DNA of 63,715 bases, the filler included, from Stramenopiles sp. TOSAG23-2 (taxonomy: Eukaryota), in assembly GCA_900128395.1 (NCBI GenBank). It is 11 parts of 11 records of this genome, joined end to end, with 100 filler letters (N's around TTAATTAATTAA, not from the genome) between each part and the next. Parts side by side here need not be neighbours in the genome. Positions count along the whole stretch, not along the records: positions 29,740 to 37,061 come from LT650334.1; 10 more parts are not named here. One strand, written 5' to 3'. This document shows, piece by piece, positions 6,237-59,392 of this stretch. Numbering within the stretch: the first letter of the stretch is position 1; each line of letters starts with the position of its first letter. Both the position numbers and the translations under genes were made by a program. The notes under the pieces are model-generated. The model did not search any database, was not told the DNA's origin, and saw nothing but the letters and a program-made list of their open reading frames with translations.

Positions 6237-7319
6237 TCATGAGTATAATTGAACTTTAACTGTTTCTTCTAAAAATTTTCTTTCTGATGGACTGACAATT
6301 CTGCTCTTTATTTGTTTTTTTCTCATAGCCTCTGGTGATCGTTTAGCTTCCTCTCCACGTTTCCATATAGTTTTCCTTGCATCAAAATATTCGCCATCAA
6401 GTATTACTTTTGGATCATATGAATTTGGACCAGGAATCTGCTTTGCACGATATTGAATCCATTCTAATTGAGTTTTTGGTTTACTTTCATTAAAGCGACC
6501 TCCTCCGATTTTTGGATTGGGCAACATACCATAAGTGGCGGGACCAGGTGTATTTTTATTATAATAAATAATCCATTCAATTTCAGATTTACTATTACCC
6601 ACATTAAACCTCCCACCGCCTTTTTTTGGTAATGGTGGTCTCGCATAAGCATTTGGACCAGGTGTATCCTTAGCAAAATATTGTATCCAATCTATTTCTG
6701 ATTTTACTACTGCTGTACTAATTCGACCGCCTTTAGGCAGCGGCATTGGTGCTGGTTTGTACTCAGCTGGTCCAGGTAAATTTTTCGCACGATAGATGAC
6801 CCACTCGATGTTCGATTTTGGTTTCGATTCATTAAATTTTCCTCCTCCACGCTTCGGAGCTTTTGGTCTTGGATATGCATTTGGTCCAGGTGTGTCCTTT
6901 GCATAGTATATTGTCCAATCTATTTCACTTTTTGGTGTAGATGTACTAAATATGCCACTGTATTTAGACAAACTGCGCCCCATCATCCTGCTATCCGATA
7001 CATCATATGTTGCTGGGCCTGGGGGTGGTGGGAAAAGTTCATCTCGGCTTTTTCCAAGTTTTTTTGGACTTTTTGATGTTTCTAATGCTTTCAATTTCTC
7101 TTTTGCTAATCTTTTCTTTTTAAGTTTTTTCATTAATGCTCTTTGTTCCATTACTTTAAATGGTTCAAAGTGTATACCAGAACCCAAAAAAGAAACACGA
7201 TTTACTTGATTTTTAAAGGCAATTGAATCTTTCTTGATACTAGCTAATTTACGTATTTTCTCCTTTTTCTTCCTTCTGACTCTCTTCCTCTTAAATTTAT
7301 TTAAATTATACCTATTACT
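6237..7319 (-). CDS. SHIPPO/ODF3-type PGP-repeat axonemal protein, 5'-partial
   Basis: Six ~38-aa repeats K[ST]EI[DE]W..Y.AK..PGP..Y; bases 7320-7352 are a chimeric inverted copy of 4505-4537, so the true start is missing. Confidence 0.75.
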   Translation of the reverse strand, partial: SNRYNLNKFKRKRVRRKKKEKIRKLASIKKDSIAFKNQVNRVSFLGSGIHFEPFKVMEQRALMKKLKKKRLAKEKLKALETSKSPKKLGKSRDELFPPPPGPATYDVSDSRMMGRSLSKYSGIFSTSTPKSEIDWTIYYAKDTPGPNAYPRPKAPKRGGGKFNESKPKSNIEWVIYRAKNLPGPAEYKPAPMPLPKGGRISTAVVKSEIDWIQYFAKDTPGPNAYARPPLPKKGGGRFNVGNSKSEIEWIIYYNKNTPGPATYGMLPNPKIGGGRFNESKPKTQLEWIQYRAKQIPGPNSYDPKVILDGEYFDARKTIWKRGEEAKRSPEAMRKKQIKSRIVSPSERKFLEETVKVQLYS

Positions 7320-7352
7320 TGAACGGAAAAAATTTTGTATCATCAACGCTGC

Positions 7353-7452
7353 NNNNNNNNNNNNNNNNNNNNNNNNNNNNNNNNNNNNNNNNNNNNTTAA
7401 TTAATTAANNNNNNNNNNNNNNNNNNNNNNNNNNNNNNNNNNNNNNNNNNNN
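7353..7452. other. Artificial contig linker (N-TTAATTAATTAA-N); identical linkers at 14793-14892, 22217-22316, 29640-29739, 37062-37161, 44476-44575, 51886-51985, 59293-59392, 60768-60867, 62242-62341
   Basis: 100-nt spacer carrying stops in all six frames; contig lengths decrease monotonically (7340, 7324, 7323, 7322, 7314, 7310, 7307, 1375, 1374). Confidence 0.98.
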
Positions 7453-7517
7453 AAAATATATATCGAATACTCTTTTTTTTTTCATTTTATTTTGGTTATC
7501 TTTCCACCCTTGATCAG

Positions 7518-8975
7518 ATACTTGGTGGCGCAGCAAAGAATCAAGAGAAATTCCATTGGTCAAAACTTCCGATACAAACGATGAAAAAAAGGACAACATT
7601 AAAGGCCTTGATTCTGAGAGTACAAAATTACGAAAAGATTTTTCTTCATGGTTTAATAAATCGTTTGAAAATGACGAAGATGATGTAGAAAAAAAGACCA
7701 ATTCTATAACTAGTAAAAAAAAGAAAAAAAACATTTCACCTAAGAAACCAAACTCACCAAGAAAGAAATATGTCAATGGTGGGCGTAAAGGAAAGTATAC
7801 TCGGCAACTAATTGATTTAAACCAAGGATTACGAAAGCCTATGAGTTCTATATGGTCACCATCAATTTTACGACCACATCCACCTATATTAATAGAAGCA
7901 ATCGAAACAATGGTACCAGATAATGTAAAGAAAGATGTTACAGCAAGAAGTCCATCGCATGTTTTAGAAGAATCACTATCTTCTTTATTATCAATAGATA
8001 TTAGAAACCATCGGGAAAATGTTAACAGAAGAATTCAAAAATACATCTGATATATGTAGATACATGTTCATGAAAATTATTGTTTTAGTATCCCAATCTA
8101 TCTATATTGATATTTTGGAAGTCGCCTCTGAAATTGCTACAGCTGTGGAATTGTTCATGGAAGATTTTTTCGTTCCATATGCAAATGCAACAGGCTTACA
8201 GAAAGATGAAAATGAATACAGAAAAAATCGCATATACAATAAAAGTGTTGGAAAAGAATTGAAAAGTGCACAAGATACATTGAAACGAGTATTTATACGT
8301 TATTGCAAACGTCCAAAGTGGATCAACGATGAAATATTTAAAGAGCAAGAGGAGAAAAAAATGGTAGATGCAATTAAAGAAGCCGAGGAGAAAGCAAAGA
8401 AAGGAAAAAAAAAGAAACAGAAAAAAGTAAATGATGATAGCGTTAATCCATTAACTGGAAGTAGAAAACTGTCCCCAAAAGGTCGCAAAGTATATTGGAT
8501 GGATTTAACAAATTGGTTAGAAATTTTAAATGATTTAAAATTATTCAATGAAGATTTCTCAGTACGAGATGGAAGAAGATTTTTCTTTCTTTCTCGAATG
8601 ATGAGTAAGGATGAAAGTAAATATTTGTTGATACGTAAAACATTAAATTATGCTGATTTTCTAGAAGCAATATGTCGACTTGTAGACAATTTACAAATTC
8701 CAACGAAAGCAGAGTTAAAAGCAAACGAAGTTTCTACTTTTTCTGAATTGTTAATAAAGAGGCAAATTGAACACGCAGTAGGCGATGATACTTTGGATGG
8801 GTGGAACTCAGTAGGTATGCATAAAGCATGGAAAATGAAAGAACCAATGACAGGATCATTAGTTAGTAAATTATCGATTATGATGCCATTTTTAGTCGAC
8901 CAGATTAAAAATTCTATTGCAATAGGGAAAATCAAAAGTGTGGAGAGAGCAAAAATTAAAAACCAATCATTGTAA
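7518..8975 (+). CDS. Hypothetical protein with degenerate EF-hand-like C-terminus (possibly flagellar); frame break near 8020-8050, probably 5'-partial
   Basis: Two overlapping ORFs (7556-8050, 8019-8975); pyrimidine tract plus CAG before 7518; C-terminal MDLTNWLEIL...FFLSRMM...LNYADFLEAICRL. Confidence 0.45.
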
Positions 8976-24010: not shown

Positions 24011-24389
24011 CGTTCGTTCTCCCTATCAATAAAATCAAATGACATCTAAAAAAAAATAAATAATCATCGCACGGCACCACGCACAACAACAATGCTGGAA
24101 TAATGCTGCTGGAATGATTGAAATCCAGGACGGAAATGATGTGCTGCCAATCTATAAAAAAAATATATAATATTTGCTATAATATCTAAAACAGACGACT
24201 TCAAGTTTGGTTGTGATGCTTTATGCGTTTGTATACGATATCCAATGAATCATATTTAAATTGAAACAATAAGTTTTTGCATTTGTACAATATAATTTAA
24301 CAATTGAAAATTTAAACAAATATAATTCACTGGTTTTGGTGATAGAATAAGTGAATTATATTTTTTGTATTATTTTTATAGTAATTATT

Positions 24390-26812
24390 ATGGAATTTAT
24401 CCTCCAAGAAGAAGGACAAGAAGATGTGGAAGAAGATGTGCAAAATATTTTATTAAATAAATTTAGTATTGAAATGGGTACAGCATGTGTTTTATCATCA
24501 TATATTAGTGGTATTGTCGAAGATGCATATAACGATCCATTAGAAGCACGAGATTCGATCCAAACGTTATTAAATGATTCAATTGATGATAAAAATATGA
24601 AACAACATGTAAATCAATTTGCTAAAGCTTTAGTCCAACACCATGTAAATTTGAAAAAAGTAGAATTAAAAAATGCAAATAATTTAAAACAACAACAAAA
24701 TAATAAAAAACAATATGAAAGAATAACAGATGATGATAGAAAAAACATTAATAACAATGTAAACAATATTATATCACAAAGATCCTCTTCTAATAAATTT
24801 GGAAATAATATGATTGATTTAAACGACAACAACAGCAGTAATAATAATAATAATAGTAATGCTTCAACACGTAAAAATCGACGTAATAAAAAACGTGCAG
24901 AGAAAAAAAAGAAACAACAACGACGACAAGAGGGCAATGTGGATGCCACAAAAAATCCCCAACAATCAATATTAAAAGAAGGAAATAAATTCACGTTAGA
25001 AAAATATGACAAATTAAAAGCGGATGGGGATGATCTTGATGATTGGGGTACACAATGGGTGGAAACGAGAGAAACAAATGGAATTTGGGGTGGAAGAGGA
25101 CGTGGTGGCCGAGGAATCCAATTGAGAAACATTAATGATGAAGTAAATGATGTCATACTGGAAGGTGTTACGTTGGCATATGATGGAGAAGAATTATTAA
25201 CACGTACACGATTACAAATTGTAAAAGGGAAAATATATGGTTTAATTGGTAGAAATGGATGTGGAAAGTCAACTTTATTGAAAAAAATTAGCCGCGGTGA
25301 AGTTCCAGGTTGGCCAAATAGTGTTAGCGTAGAATATGTTGAGCAAGAAATTGATATTTCTAGTGATAAATCCGCAATTGAATTAGTTGTAGAAGCATCT
25401 AAAAAATCATTAACCAGGAAATATGGTAGTGTGGAAAATTTAATGTTTGAACGTAAAAAAAATCGAAGAACATATATCAGAAGAAAATGAAGAGGATGAT
25501 GATGATGCTGATACTTTAAATTTAATGATGGAACGATTGTGTGAAATAGAAGAAGCTTTGGCAGTTTTAGGTGTAAACGATGATGATGACGACGAAACGC
25601 AGAACAACAACGATAACAACAATAGTAATAGTAGTACAAGTAGGGTAAATATGGAAGCAATTGCAAATGCTAAAAAATTATTGTTACAATTTAATTTTTC
25701 CAAGGAACAACTTGAATTACCTTTAAAAAAACTTTCTGGAGGATTTCGTATGCGTATTGCCATAGCACGTGCAATTATTTGCAAACCTGATATTATATTA
25801 TTTGACGAACCAACTAATCATATGGATTTACATGGTGTCATCTGGTTAGAAAGGTTTATGAATAATTGTGTAAAACGAGGTCCAACTACAAAAAAGAAGA
25901 AGAAGAATAGTAAGAACAATTCACCTTCTTCTTCTTCTTCTTCTTTCTCCTCGTCTGGAATTTTAAATTATCCAAACTTTAAATCGATTATTATTGTATC
26001 ACATGATGAAAAGTTTTTAGATAATGTCATTACAGATGTTATACTTTTTTACCAAAAGCGTTTACAATATTTTGTTGGAACATATACCGCATATAAAAAA
26101 ATGTGTGATGAATCAGATCTAAGAAAACAAAGATTGTTGGAAAAGAAATCAGATGCAGAGAAAAAAGCCAAAGAATTGGCGGCAAAGCAAGCGCAATTAG
26201 TTGCAAAGTCAAAAAAAGGAAGAAAAGGCCATAGTTTTGATCCAAATAAACAGCGACAAGCAGCAGAAAAATTGAGAAAAGCGGAACGTGCCGGTTTCTA
26301 TCGGGAAGATGGTAAACGGTATCATACAATGTCATTAAAAGATATGAACACAAGTTTTTTACCAAAATCAATTTCTGTAAATGATTTAAGAAAAGATAAA
26401 CATTTAAGATTTAAATTTCCATCAGTAAATGCTCAAGAATTGAGATTAGCATCTCCTGAATCTGTGTTGATTAATTTAGATAAAATAAATTTCAAATATG
26501 GTGGTAACAACAACAATAACAACAATAATATGTACAAGACGAATGGCGAAAAAGAATATTTATTGCAAAACGTAACCGTGCAGGTCAATTTAAAGAGTAG
26601 AATAGCAATTGTAGGACCCAATGGTGCTGGGAAAACAACTTTAATTAAATTAATATGTGGTAAATTAACAGGTAGTAATAAAATTGATATAAATTCCAAT
26701 GCAAGAATAGCATTAGTTTCACAACATCATATAGATATGTTAAAAAACCATCTCAATATGTCCTCCACTCAATATTTACAACAAGAATTTCGTGATGTAA
26801 AGGCAACGGAAG
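24390..26812 (+). CDS. ABCF-family ATPase; frameshift in an A8 run near 25455-25462 and 3'-truncated by a chimeric junction
   Basis: Walker A GRNGCGKST, signature LSGG, DEPTNH, VSHD, second Walker A GPNGAGKTT; no TM helices. Confidence 0.85.
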
Positions 26813-29359
26813 CACAACAATGGAGCATTGGATTTGAAAAAAATGATCCAAGATTTAAAAAGTTACTAGAAAGATTTGATTTGAAAGATTCGACCCATAA
26901 TCCCACAACAATGGAGCATTGGATTTGAAAAAAATGATCCAAGATTTAAAAAGTTACTAGAAAGATTTGATTTGAAAGATTCGACCCATAATCCAAATGG
27001 CAAAAAGAAAATGGTTAGCATTAGTAATATCATTTCAACTGCTACTGGAAAATTAGCAAATGGTTCTGGTACGCAAATTTTACTTTCTGCATTGCGTGAA
27101 AAACTTGGTGATGATCTTCATAATGCAAAAAATGCTGAAAATGGGGAAGTTATGAAATTTTTCAAAGGTATCGTTGAAGATGATGAGGAGGATAAAGGTA
27201 AAGATATATTTGAACGTGCTATCGATAAACCGGATGAAATGAAAAATTTCAAAACGAAGGTACGTGAATTTGTATCAGGTTCTATGAACGAAAATGATCA
27301 AGCCAAAAAAGAGGAAATTCAAGTTGAATGGGAAAAAAGAAATCATATTGAATGGCCACATGATTACGATGATTTATTGATTTTCTTCGATACTGATGGT
27401 GATAAAAAGATTGTTTTAAAAGAATTTGCTCATGTATTGACAAAAGGTATGGTAAATTCAGTGGAGGAAAGAAATGCAGAAGCTGAAAAAAATGAAGAAA
27501 GAAAAGCGTCGAAACCATTACCGTTGAATGATGACGATATACCTGTAACAATGCCTGGCTTTTTAGAGATAAAATGTGTCAGTGCTGAAGCTTTGCGTGA
27601 CACTAGCTCTTGGAGAGACAAGGAAATGGATCCATATGTAAAGATCAGAGCACCTTGGAAAACACAAGCAAAATGCACGAAACCTGCTACTAATATGCAT
27701 ACGGAACCAAGATGGCAAGAATCACAAAATAATTTGCTTTCATTTGAAGTGACGGAGCAACATATTGCTGGTGGGCAATCGCTTTCAGAAATTACAATTT
27801 TCTTTCACGACGACAAAAGTTTAGCAATTGATCCTTTAGTTGGCAAATCAACTGTGAGTATTGAACGTTTCTTAACTGATAAAAAACTTGCAAAAACAGG
27901 TCGATATAGACGTATGCGAACTGAATTAGTTCATAAAGACGGTTCGAGCAGTGGCACGTTGAACTTAGAAATGCGTTTTGTACCAAAAGCTGGCATCATA
28001 GAAGAATCAAATGTCGAAGAAGAAGAAGAAGAAGAAGGAGCTAAAACGGAAACAAAAGTAGGGTCGCACGATGGTGATGAGACAAAGGAAGAAGAAGTTG
28101 AACCAAAAATGTTATGCCCAGGTATCTTCGCAATTCGTGTTGTCGGTGGAGTGAAGGAAGGGGTAAAAGAGGTAACGGATGATTCAAATTTTAAACTTGG
28201 TATAATTCCTCTATGGGCGGGACGCCGTGGGCTACAAGAGCCGGCATACCCAAAGAAAAAAAATAAAAAAGGAAGCCAGAAAAAGCATTTTTCTTTCCCT
28301 GGAGCCCTTGGTGAGGAAGCATACAATAATACAATTGATAATATCGGATTTAGACTTGAAATCGCTGATAAAGTCGGTTTTATGGGGTTTAAGAAATACC
28401 AACTTGCATATTATGGTACTATTACTAAAAAACAAATTATGGATGTGAAAAAATATAAAGAAAGATTGACTACAAAGTATCAAACAAAAGTTGATAAGGA
28501 CGGTGAGAGGAAGAAACAAGTAGAAGAGATGACTACCATTGAGGTGCTCTTATCTGCAGGAACCAAAAGTAAAAAATCGAAACAAGACGGTAAAAAAATT
28601 TCAATGAAGGTTGCTATCGATTTTCAACAAACTAGTGAGCAACCCTTAAAAGAGGAGGAAACAATCCTACCGTCGGAAGCGTTTGCTGATGGAGAACCGC
28701 CATCAACAACAGGAATATTGGAAGTTGAATTGATAGAATCAAGAAACGTAGCAGATCAAGATTGGTTTGGCTCATCCGATCCATATATCAATTTACAATT
28801 GCTTCCGACGAACAAAAATTTAAATAAAACAACATTAAAATTAGAGAAAAATAAAACAATGGTTTACAAAGACGCAGGTGCTACCGTTGAAATAAATGAA
28901 ACATTTAAATTTCCAATGTTTTGTTCCTCTCACCAAGATTATAACCATGGCAAAGGAAAAGAACGTGCTGGAAATTTAAAATTGAAAATGGAAATGAAAG
29001 ACAAAGATTTGATTTCTGATGATGCATTAGGTGTATTTGCAGAGAGTTTAGATGATTATTTAAAAGCAGGTGTAAAAGGTTTGAAGCTATTAAAACAAAG
29101 TCATTCACATTTCTATAAAAGTTTGAAAAATACGGATGACAAAAATAAACGGAAAACAACGTTGTGGTATAAAATTAATTTCATACCCGCAACAAAACTT
29201 ATAGAAAATGCCGTGAAAGAAAATTCAAAAGCGGGCAAAGATGATGCTGACAAAAAAGTAAATCCAACCAATAGGCTCATACAATGCTTAAAGGAAAGGA
29301 CTGGAAAATGCCAAATTTTGGTAATGGATGCAAATGTATATATATATATATATATATGA
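26813..29359 (+). CDS. C-terminal part of the multi-C2/EF-hand protein
   Basis: Begins with the same QQWSIGFEKNDPRFKKL sequence that ends 22317-23275; EF-hand DTDGDKKIVLKE; C2 domains with MDPYV and SSDPYI...DKDLISDDALG. Confidence 0.8.
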
Positions 29360-29845
29360 TATAGTAGGTGTATCGCTTTTAAACAAGATAGATAGATAGA
29401 TAAATAAATATTCGTTTCTCTCAAGATACAATGCTTAAAGGAAAGGACTGGAAAATGCCAAATTTTGGTAATGGATGCAAATGTATATATATATATATAT
29501 ATATGATATAGTAGGTGTATCGCTTTTAAACAAGATAGATAGATAGATAAATAAATATTCGTTTCTCTCAAGAATCTTATTATGTATACACTTATGTACA
29601 AGTTGTCACACACAGCTATTTCTACATATTTATCTTTTTNNNNNNNNNNNNNNNNNNNNNNNNNNNNNNNNNNNNNNNNNNNNTTAATTAATTAANNNNN
29701 NNNNNNNNNNNNNNNNNNNNNNNNNNNNNNNNNNNNNNNAATTCATCATAAATTTTCTCATCCATCAAAGGTATCAATGCTCGTTTTAAATTACAATCTT
29801 TAATTTTTTATTTTATGAAGAAGAATAATTAGTCAAAATTCTCTT

Positions 29846-30092
29846 TCAAGAATCTAATATACCTTTATATTGACGTTGAGAAATTGAGAATAACAAATAT
29901 CCATTTGTACACTATTAAAAGGATAATATTAAACGCAAGTTCCCTAAATATCTTAAATAGGAATATAATAAAAATCCTGATTAATACTTTTAATTGCTTA
30001 ATTATTACTTTAATACTTATAATAGTGTAAAAAAGGATATTTTTTATTTATAATTTCTTAACGTCAATATAAATGTATATTAGTATTCTTGA
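29846..30092. mobile_element. Degenerate foldback/MITE-like element with ~72-bp imperfect inverted repeats
   Basis: 29846-29917 (TCAAGAATCTAATATACCTTTATATTGACGTTGAGAAATT...TACACTATTA) pairs with 30020-30092. Confidence 0.6.
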
Positions 30093-30606
30093 TAGAAAAA
30101 AATGCAAATCTATTATTTTTAACCACAAAATGTTCTTTTTATAAAGAATAATAACTTTAAAAAAATAAAAATAACAAAAAAAAATTATCAATTTTTTTTA
30201 TTTTGGATGGCACAAGGCCACATATGGATGGATCAGAAGAATCGAACGAAGTACGAAGTCCAATAATATATACACGCGTAAATACTACAAATACGTTCTC
30301 CCACACTCACACACACACACACATTCCACCATACTTATTCTTCATCCATTATTAAGATTTGACAACTATATCATCAACTGCAATCACATCTTAATATATT
30401 AAATATAATAACAATAAAAATATTCAACACAACACGTGATTTATATTATATAAGAATAGAATTATAATAATTATCACAGACAACAAACAAAATCTAGGAA
30501 ATATCTATAATTATAATATATACCAATATATCAAGCAATATCATAGGTGTACCTAAAAACAATTACACACACACACACAGATAACATACCAACAAGATAT
30601 ATAATC

Positions 30607-33600
30607 ATGGAAGAAAATCATCGTGAATTTTATAGTTTCAATAATAATAATAACGAATCCATCAATAACAAGTTACAAAAACAAAGAAACACTACCTCCT
30701 CTCTCATCAATAAATTGATACCTTCCTCTAATATCATTGGAAATGGTAGAGCATTTAGCTCCCCATTTGGTGAAAGACATATATTATATGCTGATTATGT
30801 TGCATCTGGTAAAGCATTGCATTCGATTGAAAATTATATTGCCGACAATGTGCTTCCATTGTATGCAAATACACACACAACAGCTTCGATAACTGGTATA
30901 CAATCATCTGCATTTCGAAATGAAGCACGTCAAATCATTGGACAATCATTAAATGTTAATGTCAAAGAAGATGTTGTTTTATTTGTTGGTAGTGGTTCAA
31001 CAGCAGCTATTAATCGTGTTATTGGCATATTAGGCTTAAAAAACAATATTAATAATATCGATGACGCAAAGAAATGTGTCATTTTCGTTGGGCCTCATGA
31101 ACACCATTCCAATCTTCTTCCATGGAGAGAAACTGGTTCAACAATTGTTGAAATTAAAGAGACGAAAGAAGGATTATTTGATTTAAATGATTTAAAAGAA
31201 CAATTACACAACTATAAAGATTATCCATTTAAAATTGGTACGTTTTCATTGGCATCTAATTTAACCGGTATAAAAGCGCCGGAACATGATATATGTGAAT
31301 TAATGCATCGTAATGGTGGCTTAGTCTTTTTTGATTGTGCAACTGCTGGTCCGTATATGGATATTAATATGAACCCCGTGATTATTGGAGAGAAACGACC
31401 GTATGTATATAAAGATGGTGTATTTCTCTCACCACATAAAATGATTGGAGGGCCAAATACACCTGGTATATTAGTTATTAAAAAGAAATTATTATCAAAT
31501 AAAGTTCCAACGAATCCAGGTGGGGGTACGGTTTTCTTTGTTACTTCTAAAGATCATCGATATTTATCGAATAGAATTGAACGTGAAGAAGGTGGTACGC
31601 CTGATATTATAGGTAGTATCCGTGCCGGTTTATGTTTTCATTTGAAACATACTATTGGTACTGATACGATACATCGTTTGGAGCAAAAAAATTGGGACAT
31701 TGTTTATAATAAATTAAAAACTATCCCAAATATACATATATTAGGTGGTGGATTGGATAATCATGAAAGGTTACCAGTATTATCATTTCTCATTGAAGTA
31801 TATGAGAATAAGAAGAAACATTTTTTACATTATAATTTTGTTTGTTCCTTATTAAATGATTTATATGGTATTCAGTCACGTGGTGGATGCCAATGTGCTG
31901 GCCCATATGCACAAAGATTATTATCATTGACATATAATACTGCACAAAAATATGAAAATGAATTAATTGATAAGAAAGAATATTTAAGACCTGGCTTTAG
32001 TCGATTAAGCTTCCCATATTTTATGGAAACAATGCAAGTGGAATATATTTGCAATGCAATTACAAATATAGCTAAATATGGTTGGAGATTACTGCCATTG
32101 TATAAATTTATTCCCAAAACAGGTGAATTTAAACATGTTAGTCGTGTAACGAATTTTAAAGATCGAATATGGTTGTCACATATATTTAATGATAATGTCA
32201 GTGCTGGTGGTGCAAATTCTACGAATAGTAGTAGTAGTAGTAGTAGTAGTACTAACAACGCAGTGGTGTCTACTAGTGGTCAAAGTAAAATATGGATGGA
32301 AACATCATTGAAACAATCTATTGAAATTTTTAAAACTGCTAAAACAACTATGCGTAAAAATGCATCAAGTAATACTAATATTGATCAAACACAAATGTTT
32401 AACGATCCATCTATGCAATGGTTTTTAATGCCATCGGAAGCGAGAGATATATTAATGAAAGAAGATGATACTGAAATATTAAAAGTTGCTACAATGATTC
32501 AACAACAACCAGAGGAAGATATAACTATTATTAATCATAATAATAATAATATGATCTATCCAAAAAAATATGCCAGTGTTATTAATAATAATAGTAATAA
32601 GAATCTTAATAACTTAAGTGAAGCAGAGGAAAAAAAAGAAATTGATTCAATCGATAATATAATAGTATTGAAAAAACGTAAATTATCAGATACCACCACT
32701 ACTACCAATAATAATGTTATTGCAATAAGCAATAATGACAATACCGCTCCACAGAAGAATAGTAAACAACAAAAAATAGAGACAACGGGTAATGCTACCA
32801 CTACCACCACCGCCACCACCACCACCACAATTGCACGTAAAGTATCAAAAAAATACCCTTTGCGTAAAGTTGGAGATATTGAAGAAAAATCACAATTATT
32901 ATCAAAAGCTATTGATACGACTAAAACGAATTTAATTAAAAATACAAATGCAAAATTATTCCCAACACCACCAAAAAAATTAATGCGTGTTGTTGGGAAA
33001 GCAATTGCACAATGGGATATGATACAAGAGGGCGATCGTTTATGTTTAGGATTATCAGGTGGGAAGGATTCATTAGCATTGTTACATGTTTTACATACAG
33101 TTCAAAAAAGGTCTCCAAAACAATTCACACTAGCAGCAGCAACAGTTGATCCTGGTACAGAAGCATTTAATCCAAGGCCGCTAATTGGATATTTGAAATC
33201 ATTAAATATACCATATCATTTTCTATCTGAAAATATATTCGAACGCGCCAGTTGTGAAATGGAAGGTAATTCGATATGTTCATATTGTAGCCGTATGAAA
33301 CGTGGAACATTATATACATGTTGTCGCAAAAACAATTACAACGTATTGGTATTAGCACAACATTTAGATGATTTAGCTGAAAGTTTCATGATGTCAGCAC
33401 TGCATAATGGCCAAATTAGGACTATGAAAGCAAATTATACGATTGGTAAGGGTGATATACGTGTTATACGCCCATTTGTGTACACCCGTGAATCGCAATT
33501 GAAAGAATTTAGTTACAACGCTAAATTGCCTGTGATCAATGAAAATTGCCCAGCATGTTTTGAAGCACCAAAAGAACGTCATCGTATTAAAAAGATGTTA

Positions 33601-33846
33601 GCACAAGAAGAATCGTTATTAACTGGTATGTATGGTAATTTAAAACGAGCATTGATACCTTTGATGGATGAGAAAATTTATGATGAATTTAAAAATATAC
33701 AAAAGGAGGTAGATCAACGTGGTAAGAAACGTGTATGGGAAAGTTCAAAAAGAAGTAGTAATAACAATAATAACATCAACATCAGCAGTGGTAGTAGTAG
33801 TATTAAATCTAATTCAAACGACGGTGGTTCAAATAGTAAGAATTAG
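30607..33846 (+). CDS. ttcA: Fusion of a class V PLP cysteine desulfurase-like domain and a TtcA-type tRNA 2-thiocytidine(32) synthetase
   Basis: N-half: YADYVASG, HEHHSN, FDCA, SPHK (PLP Lys, 31429-31440), EEGGTP, RGGCQCA (31879-31899). C-half: MIQEGDR, PP-loop SGGKDS (33055-33072), CSYC (33277-33288), QHLDD, VIRP, CPAC (33547-33558). Confidence 0.9.
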   Translation: MEENHREFYSFNNNNNESINNKLQKQRNTTSSLINKLIPSSNIIGNGRAFSSPFGERHILYADYVASGKALHSIENYIADNVLPLYANTHTTASITGIQSSAFRNEARQIIGQSLNVNVKEDVVLFVGSGSTAAINRVIGILGLKNNINNIDDAKKCVIFVGPHEHHSNLLPWRETGSTIVEIKETKEGLFDLNDLKEQLHNYKDYPFKIGTFSLASNLTGIKAPEHDICELMHRNGGLVFFDCATAGPYMDINMNPVIIGEKRPYVYKDGVFLSPHKMIGGPNTPGILVIKKKLLSNKVPTNPGGGTVFFVTSKDHRYLSNRIEREEGGTPDIIGSIRAGLCFHLKHTIGTDTIHRLEQKNWDIVYNKLKTIPNIHILGGGLDNHERLPVLSFLIEVYENKKKHFLHYNFVCSLLNDLYGIQSRGGCQCAGPYAQRLLSLTYNTAQKYENELIDKKEYLRPGFSRLSFPYFMETMQVEYICNAITNIAKYGWRLLPLYKFIPKTGEFKHVSRVTNFKDRIWLSHIFNDNVSAGGANSTNSSSSSSSSTNNAVVSTSGQSKIWMETSLKQSIEIFKTAKTTMRKNASSNTNIDQTQMFNDPSMQWFLMPSEARDILMKEDDTEILKVATMIQQQPEEDITIINHNNNNMIYPKKYASVINNNSNKNLNNLSEAEEKKEIDSIDNIIVLKKRKLSDTTTTTNNNVIAISNNDNTAPQKNSKQQKIETTGNATTTTTATTTTTIARKVSKKYPLRKVGDIEEKSQLLSKAIDTTKTNLIKNTNAKLFPTPPKKLMRVVGKAIAQWDMIQEGDRLCLGLSGGKDSLALLHVLHTVQKRSPKQFTLAAATVDPGTEAFNPRPLIGYLKSLNIPYHFLSENIFERASCEMEGNSICSYCSRMKRGTLYTCCRKNNYNVLVLAQHLDDLAESFMMSALHNGQIRTMKANYTIGKGDIRVIRPFVYTRESQLKEFSYNAKLPVINENCPACFEAPKERHRIKKMLAQEESLLTGMYGNLKRALIPLMDEKIYDEFKNIQKEVDQRGKKRVWESSKRSSNNNNNINISSGSSSIKSNSNDGGSNSKN

Positions 33847-34365
33847 TTTTTCGAAAGAGAGCAAGAGAAGAAGAGAAAAAGTAGGAGAGAGTGTGTTTTT
33901 TAAAAAAAAGTTTATTTTCAGGTGTATACACAAACAATAAATACATTTTTATATGCATGGTACGCACATTTATATAATTGAGATATTTTTTTATGATCCT
34001 CAAAAATAATATTTTTTCGGTAAAAAAAAAAGAATTTTTAATGCATACACACACACACACACACACACACAGATCTCTCAATATTTTTCAATATTAACAA
34101 GATCGTAATTATAAATTATATTATATGCATCATATATGCATTGTCATCAATGTTACGAAGTACTTCGTACGAATTATAAAATACGACTTCTCGTCTCGTT
34201 ATTCATATATACGCGCGTCCATTTAAATACATCACATACACACGACGGAAATTACCTCATTAACCTCGTGTGTACATACGAAGCGTATATGACATAATAT
34301 ATTATACACAAGTCATATCTACCCTGAGTAGCATAATAAAAATATACGCTAATTTTAAAACACAT

Positions 34366-35928
34366 TTACATACCATATGCATCATCACCATATCCAGATC
34401 CACCATATCCAGAACCATCATAAGTGTCATATGCAGAATTGTTATTATTATTATTATTGTCATTAGTAGTAGTAGTATCATCCTCATCATCATCATCATC
34501 AAATGACATACCATATTCCTCAATGAAACGTTGAATTTTACCATCTTGAAGATATTCATCCATTTTCAATCCACTACTTTTACCAATACCATCCACTTTG
34601 TGTTTTTTTGAACTCCCTAATTGTTTACCAGTCGCTGTTCCTTCGCTACCGAAAATAAAATTAAGATTTTGAATTGCATATGCTACCTTTTTATACGCTG
34701 CTTTTTTAAAGCCGTCTGCATGTGTTGATGCTTCCAAGAATATACCAGCAAGCTTCGCATTCTCTGGGCATTTACATGCAGCGGCTGCTTTTTCAGCTTG
34801 TTTTTTTTCTTCTTCAACAGTACCCAATTCCTTCTTTGCAGCAACTAACGTATCCGTAATATTTTTATCATTTGCATTATATATACCAGCTAACGCGATG
34901 CGTGCATCCCCATCATTACTTGATAATTTAATGCCAATTCCACGTGCTTTTTCCAATAATGAATCTAAAACAGCACGTTGATCCATATTACTAGTATCAA
35001 ATTCAACATTTTCCATTCCTTTTGAATTTTCGATTTTTTCTTTAGCTGCTTGATTTTGAAGCAATTCCTCATATTGTTCCACCGTTCGTACCCATGGTAC
35101 TTCCCCTCGTTCAAGGTGATCAGTAACAAAATTGCACGTGACGCGATAATGACCATTATGATATCCTTTGCAAGTCCATTTGCCTTGTCCATCATTTTTA
35201 CCACTAGGTATACATGTTAATGTAGTAGATTTACGACCAGTAGTGGAACGTTCTGGATCATCTTCCCCACCATGACATTCTGGACAACGTGGAATCGTGC
35301 CAAAGACATGGCCATCGATTACCCTTGATACTAGCTCTTCTTTTTTACCACTTTGAACTAAATAATTCCATTTTAAAATTTGTTTTAAATCAGATGTTGT
35401 CATTTTTCCATACAATGCAATAGCTTCAACTAATTTTGGTGACATACCTTTTTCTTTTGCAACACGTTCGATATCTGCTTGTGATAATGTTGTGCTAAAA
35501 GAAGAAGAAGATCCTTTCTTTTTACCACTACTTTTTTTTGCTTTTTTTGATGACGAAGATCCACCGTCGCTGCTACTGCTAACATTGGCAAGTGCATCTG
35601 AAATTTCATTAAATGTTCGTTTTAAACCATTATCATGTTCTTCTTTTTCTGCTGCGGACTTTTGAAACGAAGCTCTGAATTCTTTCACTAATTCTTCATC
35701 TACGTTTTGAAATTCACCTGCAATAAAAGCTTCCAAATCTTTTTTATAATTCTTTTTTGGTATTTTAAAACACGCTGCATTAGCACATCTCCATGAACAC
35801 ATCGTATATTCCCCATTATCACTTTCCGTTCCTACTCTTAATGCACCTTTTGGTATTTTTTCTTTACAACCTTTGCATGATGAACGACCAGTTTTTGCTT
35901 TTTCAAGGACATATCCTACAATTGGCAT
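34366..35928 (-). CDS. PARP-type zinc finger, SAP, PADR1 (Zn3) and PolX 8-kDa (HhH_8) domain protein
   Basis: YVLEKAKTGRSSCKGCKEKIPKG.LRVG; MTTSDLKQILK.N....SGKKEELVSRV; DG.VFG..P.CPEC...W.CKGY...C; ENAKLA.IF...FKKAAYKK...DGIGKSSGLKMDEYLQDGKI. Confidence 0.8.
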   Translation of the reverse strand: MPIVGYVLEKAKTGRSSCKGCKEKIPKGALRVGTESDNGEYTMCSWRCANAACFKIPKKNYKKDLEAFIAGEFQNVDEELVKEFRASFQKSAAEKEEHDNGLKRTFNEISDALANVSSSSDGGSSSSKKAKKSSGKKKGSSSSFSTTLSQADIERVAKEKGMSPKLVEAIALYGKMTTSDLKQILKWNYLVQSGKKEELVSRVIDGHVFGTIPRCPECHGGEDDPERSTTGRKSTTLTCIPSGKNDGQGKWTCKGYHNGHYRVTCNFVTDHLERGEVPWVRTVEQYEELLQNQAAKEKIENSKGMENVEFDTSNMDQRAVLDSLLEKARGIGIKLSSNDGDARIALAGIYNANDKNITDTLVAAKKELGTVEEEKKQAEKAAAACKCPENAKLAGIFLEASTHADGFKKAAYKKVAYAIQNLNFIFGSEGTATGKQLGSSKKHKVDGIGKSSGLKMDEYLQDGKIQRFIEEYGMSFDDDDDEDDTTTTNDNNNNNNNSAYDTYDGSGYGGSGYGDDAYGM

Positions 35929-35954
35929 TGTTGTTTTTTATTTTTTCTCTTTGT

Positions 35955-35990
<36 letters not shown>

Positions 35991-37187
35991 TATTATCTTA
36001 TACCGTATTGATAGAAATCAAAATACGATTCTTCGAAATGTTTTGTTAATCACGTCGTAGATGTATATGTCTTTACTGATGATACAAACTTATAATCTAT
36101 CTCTATCCCTTTTCCTCGAGGTCGTCTTCAATTCAATTTGTTCTATAATAAATAAATATTTTTTTTTTTTGTTTTTGTTGTTTTTGTTGTTTTTTTTGTT
36201 TTGTTGATTTTTTTCATCGAATTTTAACGCTATTATACCTTAACCTACTATCAAATGATGATTTAATTATACTTCAAAGGAGAATTAGAATACTAAAACT
36301 ATACTTGATATTTTAATCATTTTTACCTCATCTTCAAAAACCAGCATCACACATATATAAGATAGATATTTTTAGATGGGTTATTAAAACCTAAATAAAC
36401 AAGTATACATTATTATAAACATATTTAAGAAACAGACATTATTTTATACATAGATTACAATAATATTACATGCAACACGTTTTACGATACTCAAACAAAC
36501 GATGCTAAGTTTTATATGACAACTGAATAGTTTGTTTTTAAAGGTATTATTTGTATCATAGAAAAATTTACTTTTTATTTTTTTTTTTTCATTTTAACCG
36601 TGTTTATACCCAAAAAGCAGTTATATTGCTAATATTAAAAAAATGATCTGAAAAAGTAAGTTCTTCTTCAATTCAAGTAATACAAATGAACACGGTCTTT
36701 TTTAGTAATATTGCACAGGATTTAAAGCTATCCGGACAAATATTGAAGCATAAGAAAGTCATTTTCTATCATGGTGGTGTGTATAGACAAATTCTCCGCA
36801 TTTTGTAAAAGCAGGAGGCGTAGAGGAGGAGAAGAACTAGAATTAACAATAAGAAACCCACAAAAGTAGTGGAAGACGCAGGAGACGTAGGAGAAGAGAA
36901 GAAGTAGAATTAATCAAGACGTAGGAGATGTAGAGAAAGTAGTGAAGAAATTAAATATTAGAAAGTAGAGAAAGAATAGAATAGTAAATAGCGTAGAAGA
37001 GAAAGTAGAATATGTACGACCTAATCGGAGACGTCTGATTGGAGGAGTCATAAACATACATNNNNNNNNNNNNNNNNNNNNNNNNNNNNNNNNNNNNNNN
37101 NNNNNTTAATTAATTAANNNNNNNNNNNNNNNNNNNNNNNNNNNNNNNNNNNNNNNNNNNNAATGTACGAACGTTTTAGGAACGCGC

Positions 37188-54973: not shown

Positions 54974-57900
54974 TTATGTGAAAAATGTTTTCAAATCATC
55001 TAGATTCAATGCTCTACTTTTTTTTGAATTGCCCATACTACTTCCCTCCAACAATAATGCCTTTGATAATTTCTTTTTTTTCTCATGAATTTTAATCATT
55101 TTTGTCTCGCAACTTCCTTCAACAATAAATCTATACACTTCTACATCTCGCGTTTGCCCAATCCTATGGCACCTATTGATAGCTTGATCTTCCACAGCGG
55201 GGTTCCACCACAAATCCATTAGCATCACCAATGAGGCACATGTTAAATTTAATCCTAGTCCACCAGCTTTTAAACTCATTACCATAATTTGTATATGATC
55301 TTCCTCTTTAAATTCTTGTACAGCTTTTTCACGTTTAGCTTGTGACATGCTTCCATCTAATCGAACGAAGTTGAAATTTTCCTTTTTTAAAACAATACTT
55401 ATTAAATCAAGCATGTATGTCCATTGAGTAAATATCACAGCTTTTTTATGTTTTGCTATTTTTTTCAATACAGTGCTTTGAACGACCTTATTTGAAGGTG
55501 CAGATGAAGTTCCTGGAGAATTGGATTCGCTTTTGATGACATTAATATCATGATACAAGCTTTTAGCTTTATCAATAACATTTAACCCTAAACCATTGTT
55601 TGCACTTCTACTACCATCTACACTCCCTGCAGGGACTATTATGTTATCCCGTAAAATAGTTACCATGGCATCTAATTTCGCACTGCGGACAGCTTTACCA
55701 TTATTTTGCAAATCATGCATTGTTGGTGCAGCTGTAGCATCAACGGAATCGTTGATTGGTACTACATTTTTCATATCAACCTTTGCCCTACATACAGGGC
55801 ATTTTGCACCGCCGAAATATTGTAATGATCCAAATAAACATTCTCTACACAACAAATGTCCACAAGGTGTTAGAACGCCGTTGTCAGGTGGATCTAAGCA
55901 TACTGGGCATTCCATTTTAGATACACCATCTTTTTCTAATTCATTAAATAAATTACGTATAAATTCCGGCTGAGTAGATAATGCAGAGGACATCTTATTG
56001 TTATTATCCAATACACTGCTAGATGAACTGCCATCACTATTATTTATATCATCGCTTTCGATTTTATTATTGTTACTACTACTACTACTACCACACCTAC
56101 TACTATTACCATTGTTCCCTACTGTTGATGTACTGGATAGAAAACGACGATATAATTTACCAACATATTTTTTTTTGTTTTCATTAACACTACCATCACC
56201 GGAATTTTTTCCCAAAACCAAAAAAGGGTGATCACAGGCTTGTCTTAAACGTAATAATAAGGTCAATATGGTTGCATAGTTATTTGCCAACGTGCCAGAG
56301 GCAACGTAGCCATCAAATTCAGCTTTACTTCTTTGAAATAATGATTGGTAAAATTCATTTTCTGCTTTTGAGAATTGTACTTGATGCAAATAAATGGAAC
56401 GTTTTGGCAAGGTAACAATGGCTTTGCCAGTTGTTTTATCCACCGTATCTTTCGTGCGTCTTAAAATAATCGGACCTAATACAGCACGTAAACGCTCTTT
56501 TGCTTTTTCATCACCATCATCAAATGGTTTTTTTATCACTCTGTTCCACCATAATGGAACAGACCATGGTTGGTGGTTTAAAAATTTTATTAACGAGTAC
56601 AAGTCTTGGATACCATTTTGCATGGGAGTACCTGTTACACACCATCTTCGCGTGGCATTGATACGGTTGCATCCTTGCGCTACGAGGGTTGAGCGATTTT
56701 TAATCGTATGTGCTTCATCTAATACTACGCGACGCCACTTTATTAAAAGTAATGGACATTGGAGTGAGGTAGTACTTGTAGCATTTGTTGCATTGGACAA
56801 CCTCTGTGCTTCATATGATAATGTACCATACGTAGTTAAAACTACGTCAAATTGTTTCAAGCGATTAACGTGTATATCTTTGTCATTACTATAATAAGTG
56901 TAATACGATAAGTCTTTTACATGATTTTTGATTTCGTTGCCCCATTGCGCTAATACAGACATTGGGAGTACGATTAAAGTTTGCGTTCTTTTTGAATCAT
57001 TCTCTTCTTCCTCCTCTTCTTCGTTATCTTTATTATCAGTTTCGTTCGTGTTTTGCTTAGAATTTCCATCAGCATCCTCATCATCATCACTATCATAATT
57101 TCTTGAATTTATATGTTTTAAATTGTCTTCCTTATCCTTTGCAATCAATGATAAGACTTCAATCGTTTTACCCATTCCCATTTCATCTGCCAAAATACCA
57201 CCTCGGCATTCTTGTATGGTTGGTGGCTTTTTAATTTGTACAGTTTGGCTATATGGGTTTATATAAATCGATATATGTTGTGCGTCTTGATCTTGGAAGC
57301 GACATTCAAGCCATAGAGGATGGACATTTAAAAGTTCTTGTGTTTTTGATTGTGATTTGTGTTGATTGAAAGATGGATTTTGCATTTCATATGTCGGTGA
57401 CTTAATTACTTCACGATCCGTCATCCATGACAATGCATCTTGTTGATAGGGTCGCAATGTTACATTTAATGATTTACTAGGTTCGACTGTATGAATATTA
57501 TTCATTATATCAATAAAATCATCATCTCCATTCCCAGTATTTATCAGTGTTTCTTCTAATAACAAATCAACTTGTGAATTAGAGGCACCATCCTCCTCCT
57601 CCTCTTCTGATCTGCTACGGCTATTATTATTGTTGTTGTTGTTGTTGTTATTATTATTATTATTACCATCCAGTGAATGGACCACGATATCTTCATCATC
57701 TCCATCAGAGCTACTATTTGCTTTGTCGCTAAGATCTTCTGCATTACTATCTGTATCCGTATTGCTGCTACTGCTACGATTGTTTCCAGCTAAACCTTTA
57801 CATGTTGCACTTACGATAGGAAATATCCAACGGGCTAATTTAAAAACTGCTTTTCTTAATATTGTACATTCCTCTATAATTGGGCTGGGAGCTTCGGAAA

Positions 57901-58690
57901 AAATTAACGGATCATGTACATTTATTTGCACAAGTAATTGGATCGTATTTAAAAAATTCAAATTTTCAGGGCAATATTGACACATTGCACTTGCAGTAAT
58001 CAAGCCATTATCTAACAATGGTCCTAAAAAAATAGCAACGTCTTGCTCTAATTTTCCTATAATAGATGTTTCACTATAACCAAAACGAACAAAATCACTA
58101 TTTGAAGATTGTCGAAAAATTTTCAATTGATCTCCACTTCTAACACGATTTCTTCCTTTTACTGTAGATAAGCCAGAGATTAAGTTCCATCCTAAAACTT
58201 TTCCTTTATCCCCCCATTGTTTATTTCCAAGTAGTCGGTTGTCATTTTTCCAAGATTGTATTTGTATCGTTTTACGATTCCGGTTAAAATTATTGTTACC
58301 GCGTTTTTGTTTCTTTTTTATATTATTATTATTGTTGTTGTCATTATTATTTGCATTATTACGTTTTTTTTTCTTTGAATGTTTAGTCATTATTGAAAAA
58401 GCATTTTTTGTTACTTTTTTGGCCTTGATGTTACTATTATTATTCATTTGATTTGAGCCATTCATGTTGAAGGATGAACTTCCTGTATGATTATTGATGT
58501 TGGTATTATTATTATTATTGCTGGAGGAAGATGTTATTGTTGTTGTTGATGATGAAGAAGATGACGTGGTGGAAGATGGTGAAAAACCTGAAAAATTGGT
58601 ACATGTAGCAGCGTGTTTTTCAATAAATTTGACCGGGAAACTTCTGGAACATATTGGACATTGTCCATACTCTCTTTGATACGTCGTCAT
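54974..58690 (-). CDS. RAD5: Rad5/HLTF-like SNF2 DNA translocase and RING E3 ligase with N-terminal UBZ and HIRAN-like domains
   Basis: CPIC...H...C UBZ; HIRAN-like region; GGILADEMGMGKT, LDEAH, TGTPMQN, LRQACDHP, RING CPVC..CGH..C..C..CPVCR, LNLT, QAINRCHRIGQ. Confidence 0.9.
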   Translation of the reverse strand: MTTYQREYGQCPICSRSFPVKFIEKHAATCTNFSGFSPSSTTSSSSSSTTTITSSSSNNNNNTNINNHTGSSSFNMNGSNQMNNNSNIKAKKVTKNAFSIMTKHSKKKKRNNANNNDNNNNNNIKKKQKRGNNNFNRNRKTIQIQSWKNDNRLLGNKQWGDKGKVLGWNLISGLSTVKGRNRVRSGDQLKIFRQSSNSDFVRFGYSETSIIGKLEQDVAIFLGPLLDNGLITASAMCQYCPENLNFLNTIQLLVQINVHDPLIFSEAPSPIIEECTILRKAVFKLARWIFPIVSATCKGLAGNNRSSSSNTDTDSNAEDLSDKANSSSDGDDEDIVVHSLDGNNNNNNNNNNNNNNSRSRSEEEEEDGASNSQVDLLLEETLINTGNGDDDFIDIMNNIHTVEPSKSLNVTLRPYQQDALSWMTDREVIKSPTYEMQNPSFNQHKSQSKTQELLNVHPLWLECRFQDQDAQHISIYINPYSQTVQIKKPPTIQECRGGILADEMGMGKTIEVLSLIAKDKEDNLKHINSRNYDSDDDEDADGNSKQNTNETDNKDNEEEEEEENDSKRTQTLIVLPMSVLAQWGNEIKNHVKDLSYYTYYSNDKDIHVNRLKQFDVVLTTYGTLSYEAQRLSNATNATSTTSLQCPLLLIKWRRVVLDEAHTIKNRSTLVAQGCNRINATRRWCVTGTPMQNGIQDLYSLIKFLNHQPWSVPLWWNRVIKKPFDDGDEKAKERLRAVLGPIILRRTKDTVDKTTGKAIVTLPKRSIYLHQVQFSKAENEFYQSLFQRSKAEFDGYVASGTLANNYATILTLLLRLRQACDHPFLVLGKNSGDGSVNENKKKYVGKLYRRFLSSTSTVGNNGNSSRCGSSSSSNNNKIESDDINNSDGSSSSSVLDNNNKMSSALSTQPEFIRNLFNELEKDGVSKMECPVCLDPPDNGVLTPCGHLLCRECLFGSLQYFGGAKCPVCRAKVDMKNVVPINDSVDATAAPTMHDLQNNGKAVRSAKLDAMVTILRDNIIVPAGSVDGSRSANNGLGLNVIDKAKSLYHDINVIKSESNSPGTSSAPSNKVVQSTVLKKIAKHKKAVIFTQWTYMLDLISIVLKKENFNFVRLDGSMSQAKREKAVQEFKEEDHIQIMVMSLKAGGLGLNLTCASLVMLMDLWWNPAVEDQAINRCHRIGQTRDVEVYRFIVEGSCETKMIKIHEKKKKLSKALLLEGSSMGNSKKSRALNLDDLKTFFT

Positions 58691-59392
58691 CGTTTTTAAT
58701 CAATTTAGTATAATCGGTGGTGGTTATTATTATTATTATTTCCCCTCCCCTCCTTTTGACTATATTTCATCTTTACAAACTAACAACTAAATAAACTTTC
58801 ATCCATCACCAGTATGCTGGTATGCATTATTATATTTTTTTGAATTTTTTCCCGGGCGGGCGGCTTCGGCAGTATTCTGGCATCAGTCCAGCAGTGGGCC
58901 AGTGGGCATCAGCAGAGCCATAGCATCATTAGAATTTGTGAAAAATAAATAAAACTACACAGTATTAAAACGATAGGCAGTCTGGCAATCAACAATTTAT
59001 TATCATAGAGCAATCTAATGAAAAAACTGATTAGTAGGTAAATATAATTGGCTCAGGGGTGGTTTTTTTTTGTGTCGTCGTCGCGTCGTGCACGCCTGGC
59101 ACCACGTTGTGTTGCTCGTCGTCTTTTTTATTTTTATTTATTTGAAAATAATATATTTTTTTGAAGAATTGATATTATGAGGGGTTGTGGACTATATACC
59201 ATTGCTGTATATCAATATTAAAGATAAATAACAACAGAAAGACATTCAAAAAAGATTTATAGCGAAAATTACGATGATGGAATATATGACGGNNNNNNNN
59301 NNNNNNNNNNNNNNNNNNNNNNNNNNNNNNNNNNNNTTAATTAATTAANNNNNNNNNNNNNNNNNNNNNNNNNNNNNNNNNNNNNNNNNNNN

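Follow-up and report, generated by a model that had tools for sequence, protein, structure and literature searches.

A stramenopile protein that joins PARP1-type break-recognition modules to a PolX-type 8-kDa domain without a polymerase or PARP catalytic domain

The textbook account of short-patch base-excision repair places the 5'-deoxyribose phosphate (5'-dRP) lyase within the polymerase that fills the gap (Pol beta or Pol lambda). PARP-type zinc fingers are known as nick sensors on PARP, on ligase III or on a 3'-phosphatase. Repair enzymes with a zf-PARP finger include DNA ligase III alpha and the plant 3'-phosphatase ZDP. Here we describe a protein of 520 residues encoded in genomic DNA of Stramenopiles sp. 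TOSAG23-2 (GenBank assembly GCA_900128395.1). The stretch analysed, referred to as the window, comprises 63,715 nucleotides including filler and consists of 11 parts joined end to end; the gene lies in the part derived from LT650334.1 (positions 29,740-37,061).

The protein combines a PARP1-type break-recognition module, made up of one zf-PARP finger, a Lys-rich linker and a Zn3 domain, with a PolX 8-kDa helix-hairpin-helix (HhH) domain, and a helical region lies between the two. It carries neither a polymerase nor a PARP catalytic domain. Judged from its sequence, there is about an even chance that it is a nuclear DNA strand-break protein, a two-handed sensor of nicks and gaps in which residue K455 probably removes the 5'-dRP. 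Rather more tentatively, and at somewhat less than an even chance, it would represent a widespread protist family of polymerase-independent enzymes that are break sensor and dRP lyase at once. In such enzymes the finger and Zn3 would place a free-standing PolX lyase on incised abasic sites, uncoupling the lyase from gap filling, and the 8-kDa module would also act as a portable reader of 5' ends, fused elsewhere to exonuclease and helicase domains.

A PARP1-type module joined to a PolX 8-kDa domain

Relatives were collected with a profile (A2) made from the C-terminal 200 residues of four sequences and searched exhaustively against 1.84 billion representatives, which returned 151 proteins at E <= 0.001, 22 at E <= 1e-10 and six at E <= 1e-30. 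The family profile (A3) holds 119 of the 150 matches listed, together with P0003 and P0004; the 31 matches outside it are tandem or multi-stretch proteins, three repeat proteins, three proteins of other builds and the near-duplicate P0005. Against solved structures, A3 aligned with residues 12-97 of Pol beta at E 7.8e-19 to 2e-18 (approximately 70 bits), with Tth PolX at E 1.7e-12 and with Pol lambda at E ~1e-10. The smaller profile A2 gave nothing significant among the solved structures (Pol beta E 0.19-0.9), and its best structure match, AMA1 at E 0.033, was judged spurious.

An AlphaFold model of residues 277-476, built with alignment A3, had a mean predicted local distance difference test score (pLDDT) of 94.0 and a predicted TM-score of 0.74. 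Among 48,161 representative chains compared with the model by VIA-align, the best match over model positions 107-198 (residues 383-474) was Pol beta (4rpx_A) with Z 11.7 and a root-mean-square deviation (rmsd) of 1.6 Å over 76 residues, pairing model positions 112-197 with chain positions 10-90 at 24% identity. It was followed by Tth PolX (Z 11.6), Pol mu (10.9), Deinococcus PolX (10.8), Pol lambda (10.4), TdT (9.8), the designed dRP-lyase domain 6h5h (9.6) and the nuclear magnetic resonance structure of the Pol lambda lyase domain, 1nzp (7.4), so that the eight top matches are all PolX 8-kDa or lyase domains. Matches ranked beyond Mus81, which is considered below, had Z <= 6.1 and fell on another part of the model. 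Foldseek gave no match at E <= 0.001, and each of the 50 matches it listed was to Pol beta or Pol lambda, spanning some 83 columns at an rmsd near 3 Å with E 0.1-0.4. A full-length model made from five sequences, with mean pLDDT 52.7 and values below 40 from residue 380 onward, was not used. The profile matches and the predicted PolX-type 8-kDa fold settle the HHH_8 assignment of the C-terminal domain at the family level. The domain ends 47 residues ahead of the stop codon; the structure matches are confined to Pol beta residues 12-97, and Pfam found no match to PolX fingers, palm or thumb in the protein.

At the N-terminus, zf-PARP was matched over profile positions 1-60 of 87 at E 6.9e-10, its 40.0 bits passing the gathering cut-off of 39.3. 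The putative zinc ligands are C18, C21, C48 and C53, and R31 aligns with PARP1 R34 in the phmmer alignment to solved structures. Seventeen distinct sequences of solved structures were matched by phmmer at E <= 1, of which 16 are PARP1 finger or Zn3 constructs (best 9mi8_A, E 6.5e-11) and one, with E 0.15, belongs to DNA ligase III. The finger departs from the Cys-Cys-His-Cys ligand set, having Cys48 at the His position and thus a Cys4 set. The W-R-C motif is present in all 15 listed members of the 90% cluster and is therefore a lineage trait and not an error, whereas four more distant relatives have W-R-H (alignment A1). A Cys4 finger of this kind would still be able to bind zinc.

The PARP1 alignments extend across the finger and the Lys-rich linker and on into Zn3, with the linker placed on the Lys-rich stretch of PARP1 that leads from the fingers to Zn3; by its sequence it resembles a nuclear localization signal and may act as one. 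The Zn3 module is composed of a helical, SAP-like half (residues 173-210) and a zinc ribbon formed by C215, C218, C253 and C265. Pfam placed SAP on residues 173-204 at E 2.6e-4, under its cut-off, and PADR1_N on residues 175-210 at E 0.079 (13.8 bits against a cut-off of 25.7), and Zn_ribbon_PADR1 (PF08063) was not among the Pfam matches of the protein. With the single protein sequence as query, the PARP1 Zn3 chains 2jvn_A and 2riq_A were matched at E 0.0022 and 0.0026, and with the family profile A3 at E 3.5e-11 and 2.9e-12. Alignment A4 shows C215, C218 and C253 as nearly invariant, and A1 has C265 in every sequence; the clade of the window protein has an extended Zn3 hairpin (A4).

Residues 283-384 are predicted with high model confidence to form four or five helices (model positions 7-26, 41-55, 63-76, 81-92 and 95-108) and carry the family motif LPxD...AR...G. 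Neither the window protein nor the scanned relatives matched a Pfam family here, and the Protein Atlas gave no usable match. The best VIA-align matches of this region, to UBA, CUE, EF-Ts N-terminal and clamp-loader lid folds, reach only Z 4.6-6.1, and this is too weak for a fold name to be given. The Gly/Tyr tail that closes the protein is restricted to the subclade of the window protein and P0045 (A4); it may mask the basic domain or mediate protein contacts, which is speculative.

A sequence-only reading of this gene had listed zf-PARP, SAP, PADR1/Zn3 and an 8-kDa HhH domain in that order. The order stands, but SAP is not a module of its own: SAP and PADR1_N fall on the same segment, so that the 'SAP' match is the helical half of Zn3. 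The same reading had pointed out the W-R-C finger, which is real, and an acidic Gly/Tyr tail ending in a clean stop, which is as described; the HHH_8 fold that it put forward for structure prediction is supported by the AlphaFold model.

Lyase residues and the common function of the family

According to the excerpted text of PMC5537341, K35, K60 and K72 act in lyase catalysis by Pol beta, with K72 as the Schiff-base nucleophile, and a K72-type Lys is found in Pol lambda, which has lyase activity, but not in Pol mu or TdT, which lack it. We took the register of the window protein from the profile alignment of A3 with Pol beta, the family column table and alignment A4; the independent profile A2 agrees with this register over the HhH part. 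N390, F407, K408, Y412 and K414 correspond to Pol beta N12, H34, K35, Y39 and K41; H443 and K444 to K60 and K61; G447 and G449 to G64 and G66; K450 and S451 to T67 and K68; and K455, E458, G463 and R467 to K72, E75, G80 and K84. An earlier alignment by eye, which had assigned the equivalents of K35, Y39, K41 and K72, is confirmed by this profile register.

K408, K414 and K455 are invariant in the five sequences of alignment A1, that is, in the protein's own clade. Among the 119 relatives the nucleophile position is Lys in 89, the K41 equivalent is Lys in 97 and Arg in eight, the Y39 equivalent is Tyr in 87, and the K35 equivalent is Lys in 47 and Arg in nine. The K61 equivalent (K444) is Lys in 113 of 119 and the T67 equivalent in 96 of 118, and the K68 position is occupied by Ser (49), Gly (36), Ala (13) or Lys (13). 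By these residues the protein's own clade looks lyase-competent, and lyase activity is plausible for it. A mechanism can be outlined on this basis and by analogy with PARP1. The finger and Zn3 would settle on a nick or gap and bind the exposed base and backbone, as in PARP1, and the 8-kDa domain would grip the downstream 5'-phosphate or 5'-dRP. With less certainty, K455 in the protein's clade would then form a Schiff base, helped by K408, K414, K444 and K450, and remove the 5'-dRP left by an apurinic/apyrimidinic (AP) endonuclease, which would place the lyase step of base-excision repair on a protein separate from the gap-filling polymerase.

Several observations weigh against this reading. 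Pfam matched HHH_8 in the window protein (residues 390-464) at E 2.9e-5 with 24.8 bits, short of the cut-off of 30. The positions of K60 and K68 are occupied by His443 and Ser451, with Lys found at the adjacent K444 and K450, and Y412 varies among close relatives (Tyr, Leu or Ala in A1). The K35 equivalent is Ala in 53 of the 119 relatives. Thirty of the 119 have a residue other than Lys at the nucleophile position, including members with the full build: P0135 and P0181 (His), P0058 (Leu), P0064 (Ile), P0076 (Val) and P0088 (Tyr). The fold itself also occurs without lyase activity, in Mus81 as well as in Pol mu (Z 10.9) and TdT (Z 9.8), both described as lacking lyase in the excerpted text of PMC5537341. 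Finally, the RNA support for the gene consists of assembled contigs, which may contain DNA.

One alternative is an adaptor that binds breaks without catalysis. Such a protein would hold a nick, gap or end between its fingers and 8-kDa domain with the 5'-phosphate gripped, and its helical region and tail would recruit or exclude repair factors, all without lyase chemistry. The quarter of the relatives that lack the Lys72 equivalent keep fold and build, the near-invariant positions N390, K444, G447, G449, E458 and G463 are structural or phosphate-binding ones, and the fold shared with Pol mu and TdT also fits an adaptor. The invariance of K408, K414 and K455 in the protein's clade and the prevalence of Lys at the nucleophile position speak against a purely non-catalytic role, as does the Lys that many of the 30 relatives without a K72-type Lys have at the K68-equivalent position, which would fit a shifted nucleophile. 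For the window protein we consider the adaptor unlikely, though it is a credible alternative. For the family as a whole, the absence of the K72-type Lys from 30 of 119 relatives, full-build members among them, means that a shared function cannot rest on that Lys alone, and the common function is more likely to be binding of 5' ends or gaps than chemistry by one lysine.

The reading of the window protein as break sensor and probable lyase also has to be set in the range of its relatives. A word-indexed search found only five relatives of the same length, with 100, 72, 63, 56 and 41% identity, and a weak fragment of a nematode PARP; common to the same-length relatives are the start, the four Zn3 Cys residues and the HhH motif, while the Gly/Tyr tail is present in all but one of them. 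A word-indexed search with A4 gave 12 matches at E <= 1e-5 and no useful new names. Of the 150 proteins listed from the exhaustive search, 65, mainly the longer ones, were scanned with Pfam. HHH_8 was found at E <= 0.01 in 62 of them, 54 of these at 30 bits or more (one at exactly 30.0), and the three without it are ankyrin or repeat proteins that we regard as spurious. zf-PARP was also present at E <= 0.01 in 23 of the 65, reaching its cut-off in 15, and SAP, PADR1_N or Zn_ribbon_PADR1 in 16. The HHH_8 domain ends no more than 30 residues from the C-terminus in 109 of the 119 relatives.

The labels of the relatives cover diatoms (Odontella aurita, as 'PARP-type domain-containing protein', Mayamaea pseudoterrestris and Thalassionema nitzschioides), the labyrinthulomycetes Aplanochytrium and Mucochytrium, the choanoflagellate Salpingoeca macrocollata and a transcriptome of the green alga Pyramimonas; among the relatives that bear a label, the nearest is given as a MAST-4 stramenopile. 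At least two relatives of the same build are labelled as complete transcript open reading frames (ORFs). From these sequence comparisons, the build of PARP finger and 8-kDa domain is that of a widespread protist family and not a one-off, and it is known to databases under automatic names only. Protein Atlas clusters nearest to the C-terminal part were HHH_8 clusters at 0.78-0.82, which are leads only.

Other builds were observed among the matches. Six proteins of 259-409 residues (P0054, P0060, P0062, P0063, P0065 and P0096) have two to four tandem HHH_8 domains and no polymerase family in the Pfam scan; one source label of P0054 reads 'DNA polymerase/3'-5' exonuclease PolX', and the contigs that encode this protein reach 190 kb. 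This HHH_8 subfamily also occurs together with a weak RNase_T-type exonuclease match in P0051 and with the helicase parts Pif1_2B and UvrD_C_2 in P0192, and P0210 has an AP_endonuc_2 domain with PolX pieces.

The PARP-like part could alternatively be half of a split PARP1, a DNA-sensing subunit consisting of finger and Zn3 that acts in trans for a PARP with only WGR and catalytic domains. Zn3 of PARP1 makes activating interdomain contacts, and here it is retained together with the finger, the family profile matching a PARP1 Zn1+Zn3 fusion at E 8e-16. This proposal leaves the strongly conserved 8-kDa domain unexplained, and the Pfam scan found a WGR or PARP catalytic family, or PolX palm, thumb or fingers, in none of the 65 relatives; we consider it improbable.

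A relation to Mus81, with the HhH domain making protein or branched-DNA contacts in recombination and having no part in base-excision repair, is more improbable again. Pfam HHH_8 does cover the Mus81 N-terminus, the nearest Atlas clusters (0.82 and 0.78) are automatically named 'MUS81-like HHH domain-containing protein', which makes them leads only, and the Mus81 HhH domain (2kp7) is matched at Z 7.0. The PolX domains fit much better, however, with Z 9.6-11.7 and rmsd 1.5-2.2 Å against an rmsd of 3.4 Å for Mus81, Pol beta is matched at E 8e-19 by sequence, and the protein contains no nuclease domain.

Completeness and setting of the gene

The gene is a single unbroken ORF from ATG to TAA (Table 1). 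The sequence of its final codons (ggt atg taa) is similar to a GTATGT splice donor, and onward splicing into a catalytic domain was accordingly a possibility to be weighed. Related proteins end in ..AYGY (P0006) and ..GGY (P0045) in place of ..GM, and two eukaryote gene models in the clusters of relatives have matching lengths of 527 and 501 residues, the former (P0022) ending in ..GYGM. Near-identical sequence occurs in marine RNA and DNA runs, and four marine RNA libraries (polyA or oligo-dT), produced in three studies, include contigs with near-identical pieces of the ORF. Two of these contigs, X4 record 12 (34322-34431) and X7 record 25 (34310-34431), come from two studies and are collinear with the genome across the stop codon, reaching more than 31 letters beyond it in both directions. 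Among the joints reported when the four RNA libraries were aligned to the window, none was of the GT..AG type. A splice donor at the stop codon was rejected on the strength of the relatives' ends, the gene-model lengths, the collinear contigs and the lack of such a joint. Contigs from RNA libraries establish presence and continuity; they are not proof of transcription, strand or transcript ends.

Four 'skip' joints were listed. Their sides measure 20-24 letters, their ends differ from GT..AG, and all four are taken as artefacts; three lie within the ORF, and these fall in A/T-rich low complexity. Bins 35822-36425 have zero cover in all four RNA runs, and nothing is drawn from this. At 36426-36727, an A-rich low-complexity stretch, the summed contig depth in the oligo-dT RNA run X1 is 4405-8383, in all likelihood an artefact of oligo-dT or low complexity and not a highly expressed RNA. 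With residues 285-480 as query, no longer fused form scored among 2883 candidates, which is weak evidence.

That the gene is an artefact, either a fragment of a larger spliced gene suggested by its donor-like end or a pseudogene, is scarcely credible given the endings, lengths and collinear contigs described above, the mere 520 bases that separate its stop from the end of the convergent gene, and an open frame in 14 full-length population variants with one to four substitutions each. The sequence-only reading had held that no PARP or polymerase catalytic domain is present, and this is borne out by the ORF stop, the two collinear contigs and the same-build relatives labelled as complete transcripts. 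The onward splicing that it named as the contrary outcome is not seen in the RNA-library contigs across the stop, and, in answer to the architecture search across protists that it proposed, the exhaustive profile search returned the 151 relatives reported above, with no PARP or polymerase catalytic domain in the 65 scanned.

Table 1. Positions of the gene and its features in the window
Feature	Residues	Position	Strand	Basis
Whole gene	1-520	34366..35928	-	ORF list and translation; same start and end in same-length relatives; RNA-library contigs across the stop
zf-PARP zinc finger	9-64	35737..35904	-	Pfam PF00645 and PARP1 finger alignments
C48 codon	48	35785..35787	-	Third putative zinc ligand; Cys (W-R-C) where more distant relatives have His
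Lys-rich linker KKAKKSSGKKK	128-138	35515..35547	-	HMMER alignment to PARP1 chains
PARP1-type Zn3/PADR1 module (PF21728 + PF08063)	173-280	35089..35412	-	SAP and PADR1_N on one segment; PARP1 Zn3 chains
Conserved helical region	283-384	34777..35082	-	AlphaFold helices; no Pfam match
PolX-type 8-kDa HhH domain (HHH_8, PF14716)	388-473	34510..34767	-	Pfam, family profile, fold match
K455 codon	455	34564..34566	-	Equivalent of Pol beta K72 (Schiff-base nucleophile)
Acidic, Asn-rich, Gly/Tyr-rich tail	477-520	34369..34500	-	Alignments A1 and A4
Stop codon		34366-34368	-	

The window has a G+C content of approximately 31%, and the source organism is an AT-rich marine protist. Downstream of the gene lies a convergent ORF of 1099 residues (30547-33846, + strand), with matches to a class-V aminotransferase of the cysteine-desulfurase type (E 3.1e-34) and a PP-loop ATPase (ATP_bind_3, E 4.8e-16); from these domains it looks like a fusion of sulfur donor and thiolation enzyme. 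Upstream is a WW-ankyrin ORF, and neither adjoining gene is a PARP or a polymerase. The Pfam scan of 11 large neighbouring ORFs of the window found no WGR or PARP catalytic domain. Ordinary eukaryotic genes make up the remaining large ORFs (C2, ABC transporter, WW and ankyrin, cNMP-binding, HIRAN-SNF2-RING). One of them, an ORF of 1241 residues at 54974-58699 (- strand) with HIRAN, SNF2, RING and Helicase_C domains, is of the Rad5/HLTF type and is a further DNA-damage gene of the window; it lies about 19 kb away along the joined window and outside the LT650334.1 part, so that a genomic distance is not implied. ABC-transporter ATPase matches extend across two overlapping frames (24351-25490 and 25444-26928, + strand), which suggests an intron or a frameshift. 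Microsatellites occur on both sides of the gene, (TG)n at ~34040-34075 in the 3' intergenic region and (AT)n at ~35960-35990 in the 5' intergenic region. A run of N at ~37106-37117, about 1.2 kb upstream of the gene, falls inside the 100-letter filler that follows the end of the LT650334.1 part at 37,061.

Comparison with known repair proteins

Every module of this protein is known, and the combination is what is new. A full-text literature search, with most subscription journals beyond its reach, found no paper on an architecture of finger, Zn3 and 8-kDa domain, and the architecture is not mentioned in the excerpted text of PMC4245714. If active, a free-standing 8-kDa domain on a PARP1 break-sensing module would amount to a different division of labour in repair, and it would offer a compact natural protein in which 5'-end recognition and the cooperation of finger and Zn3 are separated from polymerase and PARP catalysis.

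The N-terminal region is like that of PARP1 in having a zf-PARP finger with an R34-type Arg (R31) for gripping the backbone, a correspondingly placed Lys-rich linker and a four-Cys Zn3. It differs in having a single finger where PARP1 has two, Cys in place of His as the third ligand, a wider ligand spacing and an extended Zn3 hairpin, and the protein has no BRCT, WGR or catalytic domain by Pfam at E <= 1. The C-terminal domain is like the 8-kDa dRP-lyase domains of Pol beta and Pol lambda in its predicted fold, its G-I-G HhH motif and its equivalents of K35, Y39, K41 and K72. In contrast to those polymerases, the domain is C-terminal in a protein that has no polymerase domain, and it shows a shorter loop joining helices 1 and 2; relative to Pol beta, it has His and Ser in place of K60 and K68, each next to a Lys. 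The helical HhH fold is also shared with the N-terminal domain of Mus81 and the 8-kDa domains of Pol mu and TdT; the window protein differs from the latter two in keeping the Lys at the nucleophile position, which the excerpted text of PMC5537341 reports as absent from both.

The protein shares its general plan with DNA ligase III alpha and ZDP, which likewise couple a PARP-type nick sensor to a DNA-end-processing module, but the end module here is a PolX 8-kDa domain in place of a ligase or phosphatase, and a Zn3 domain is present in addition to the finger.

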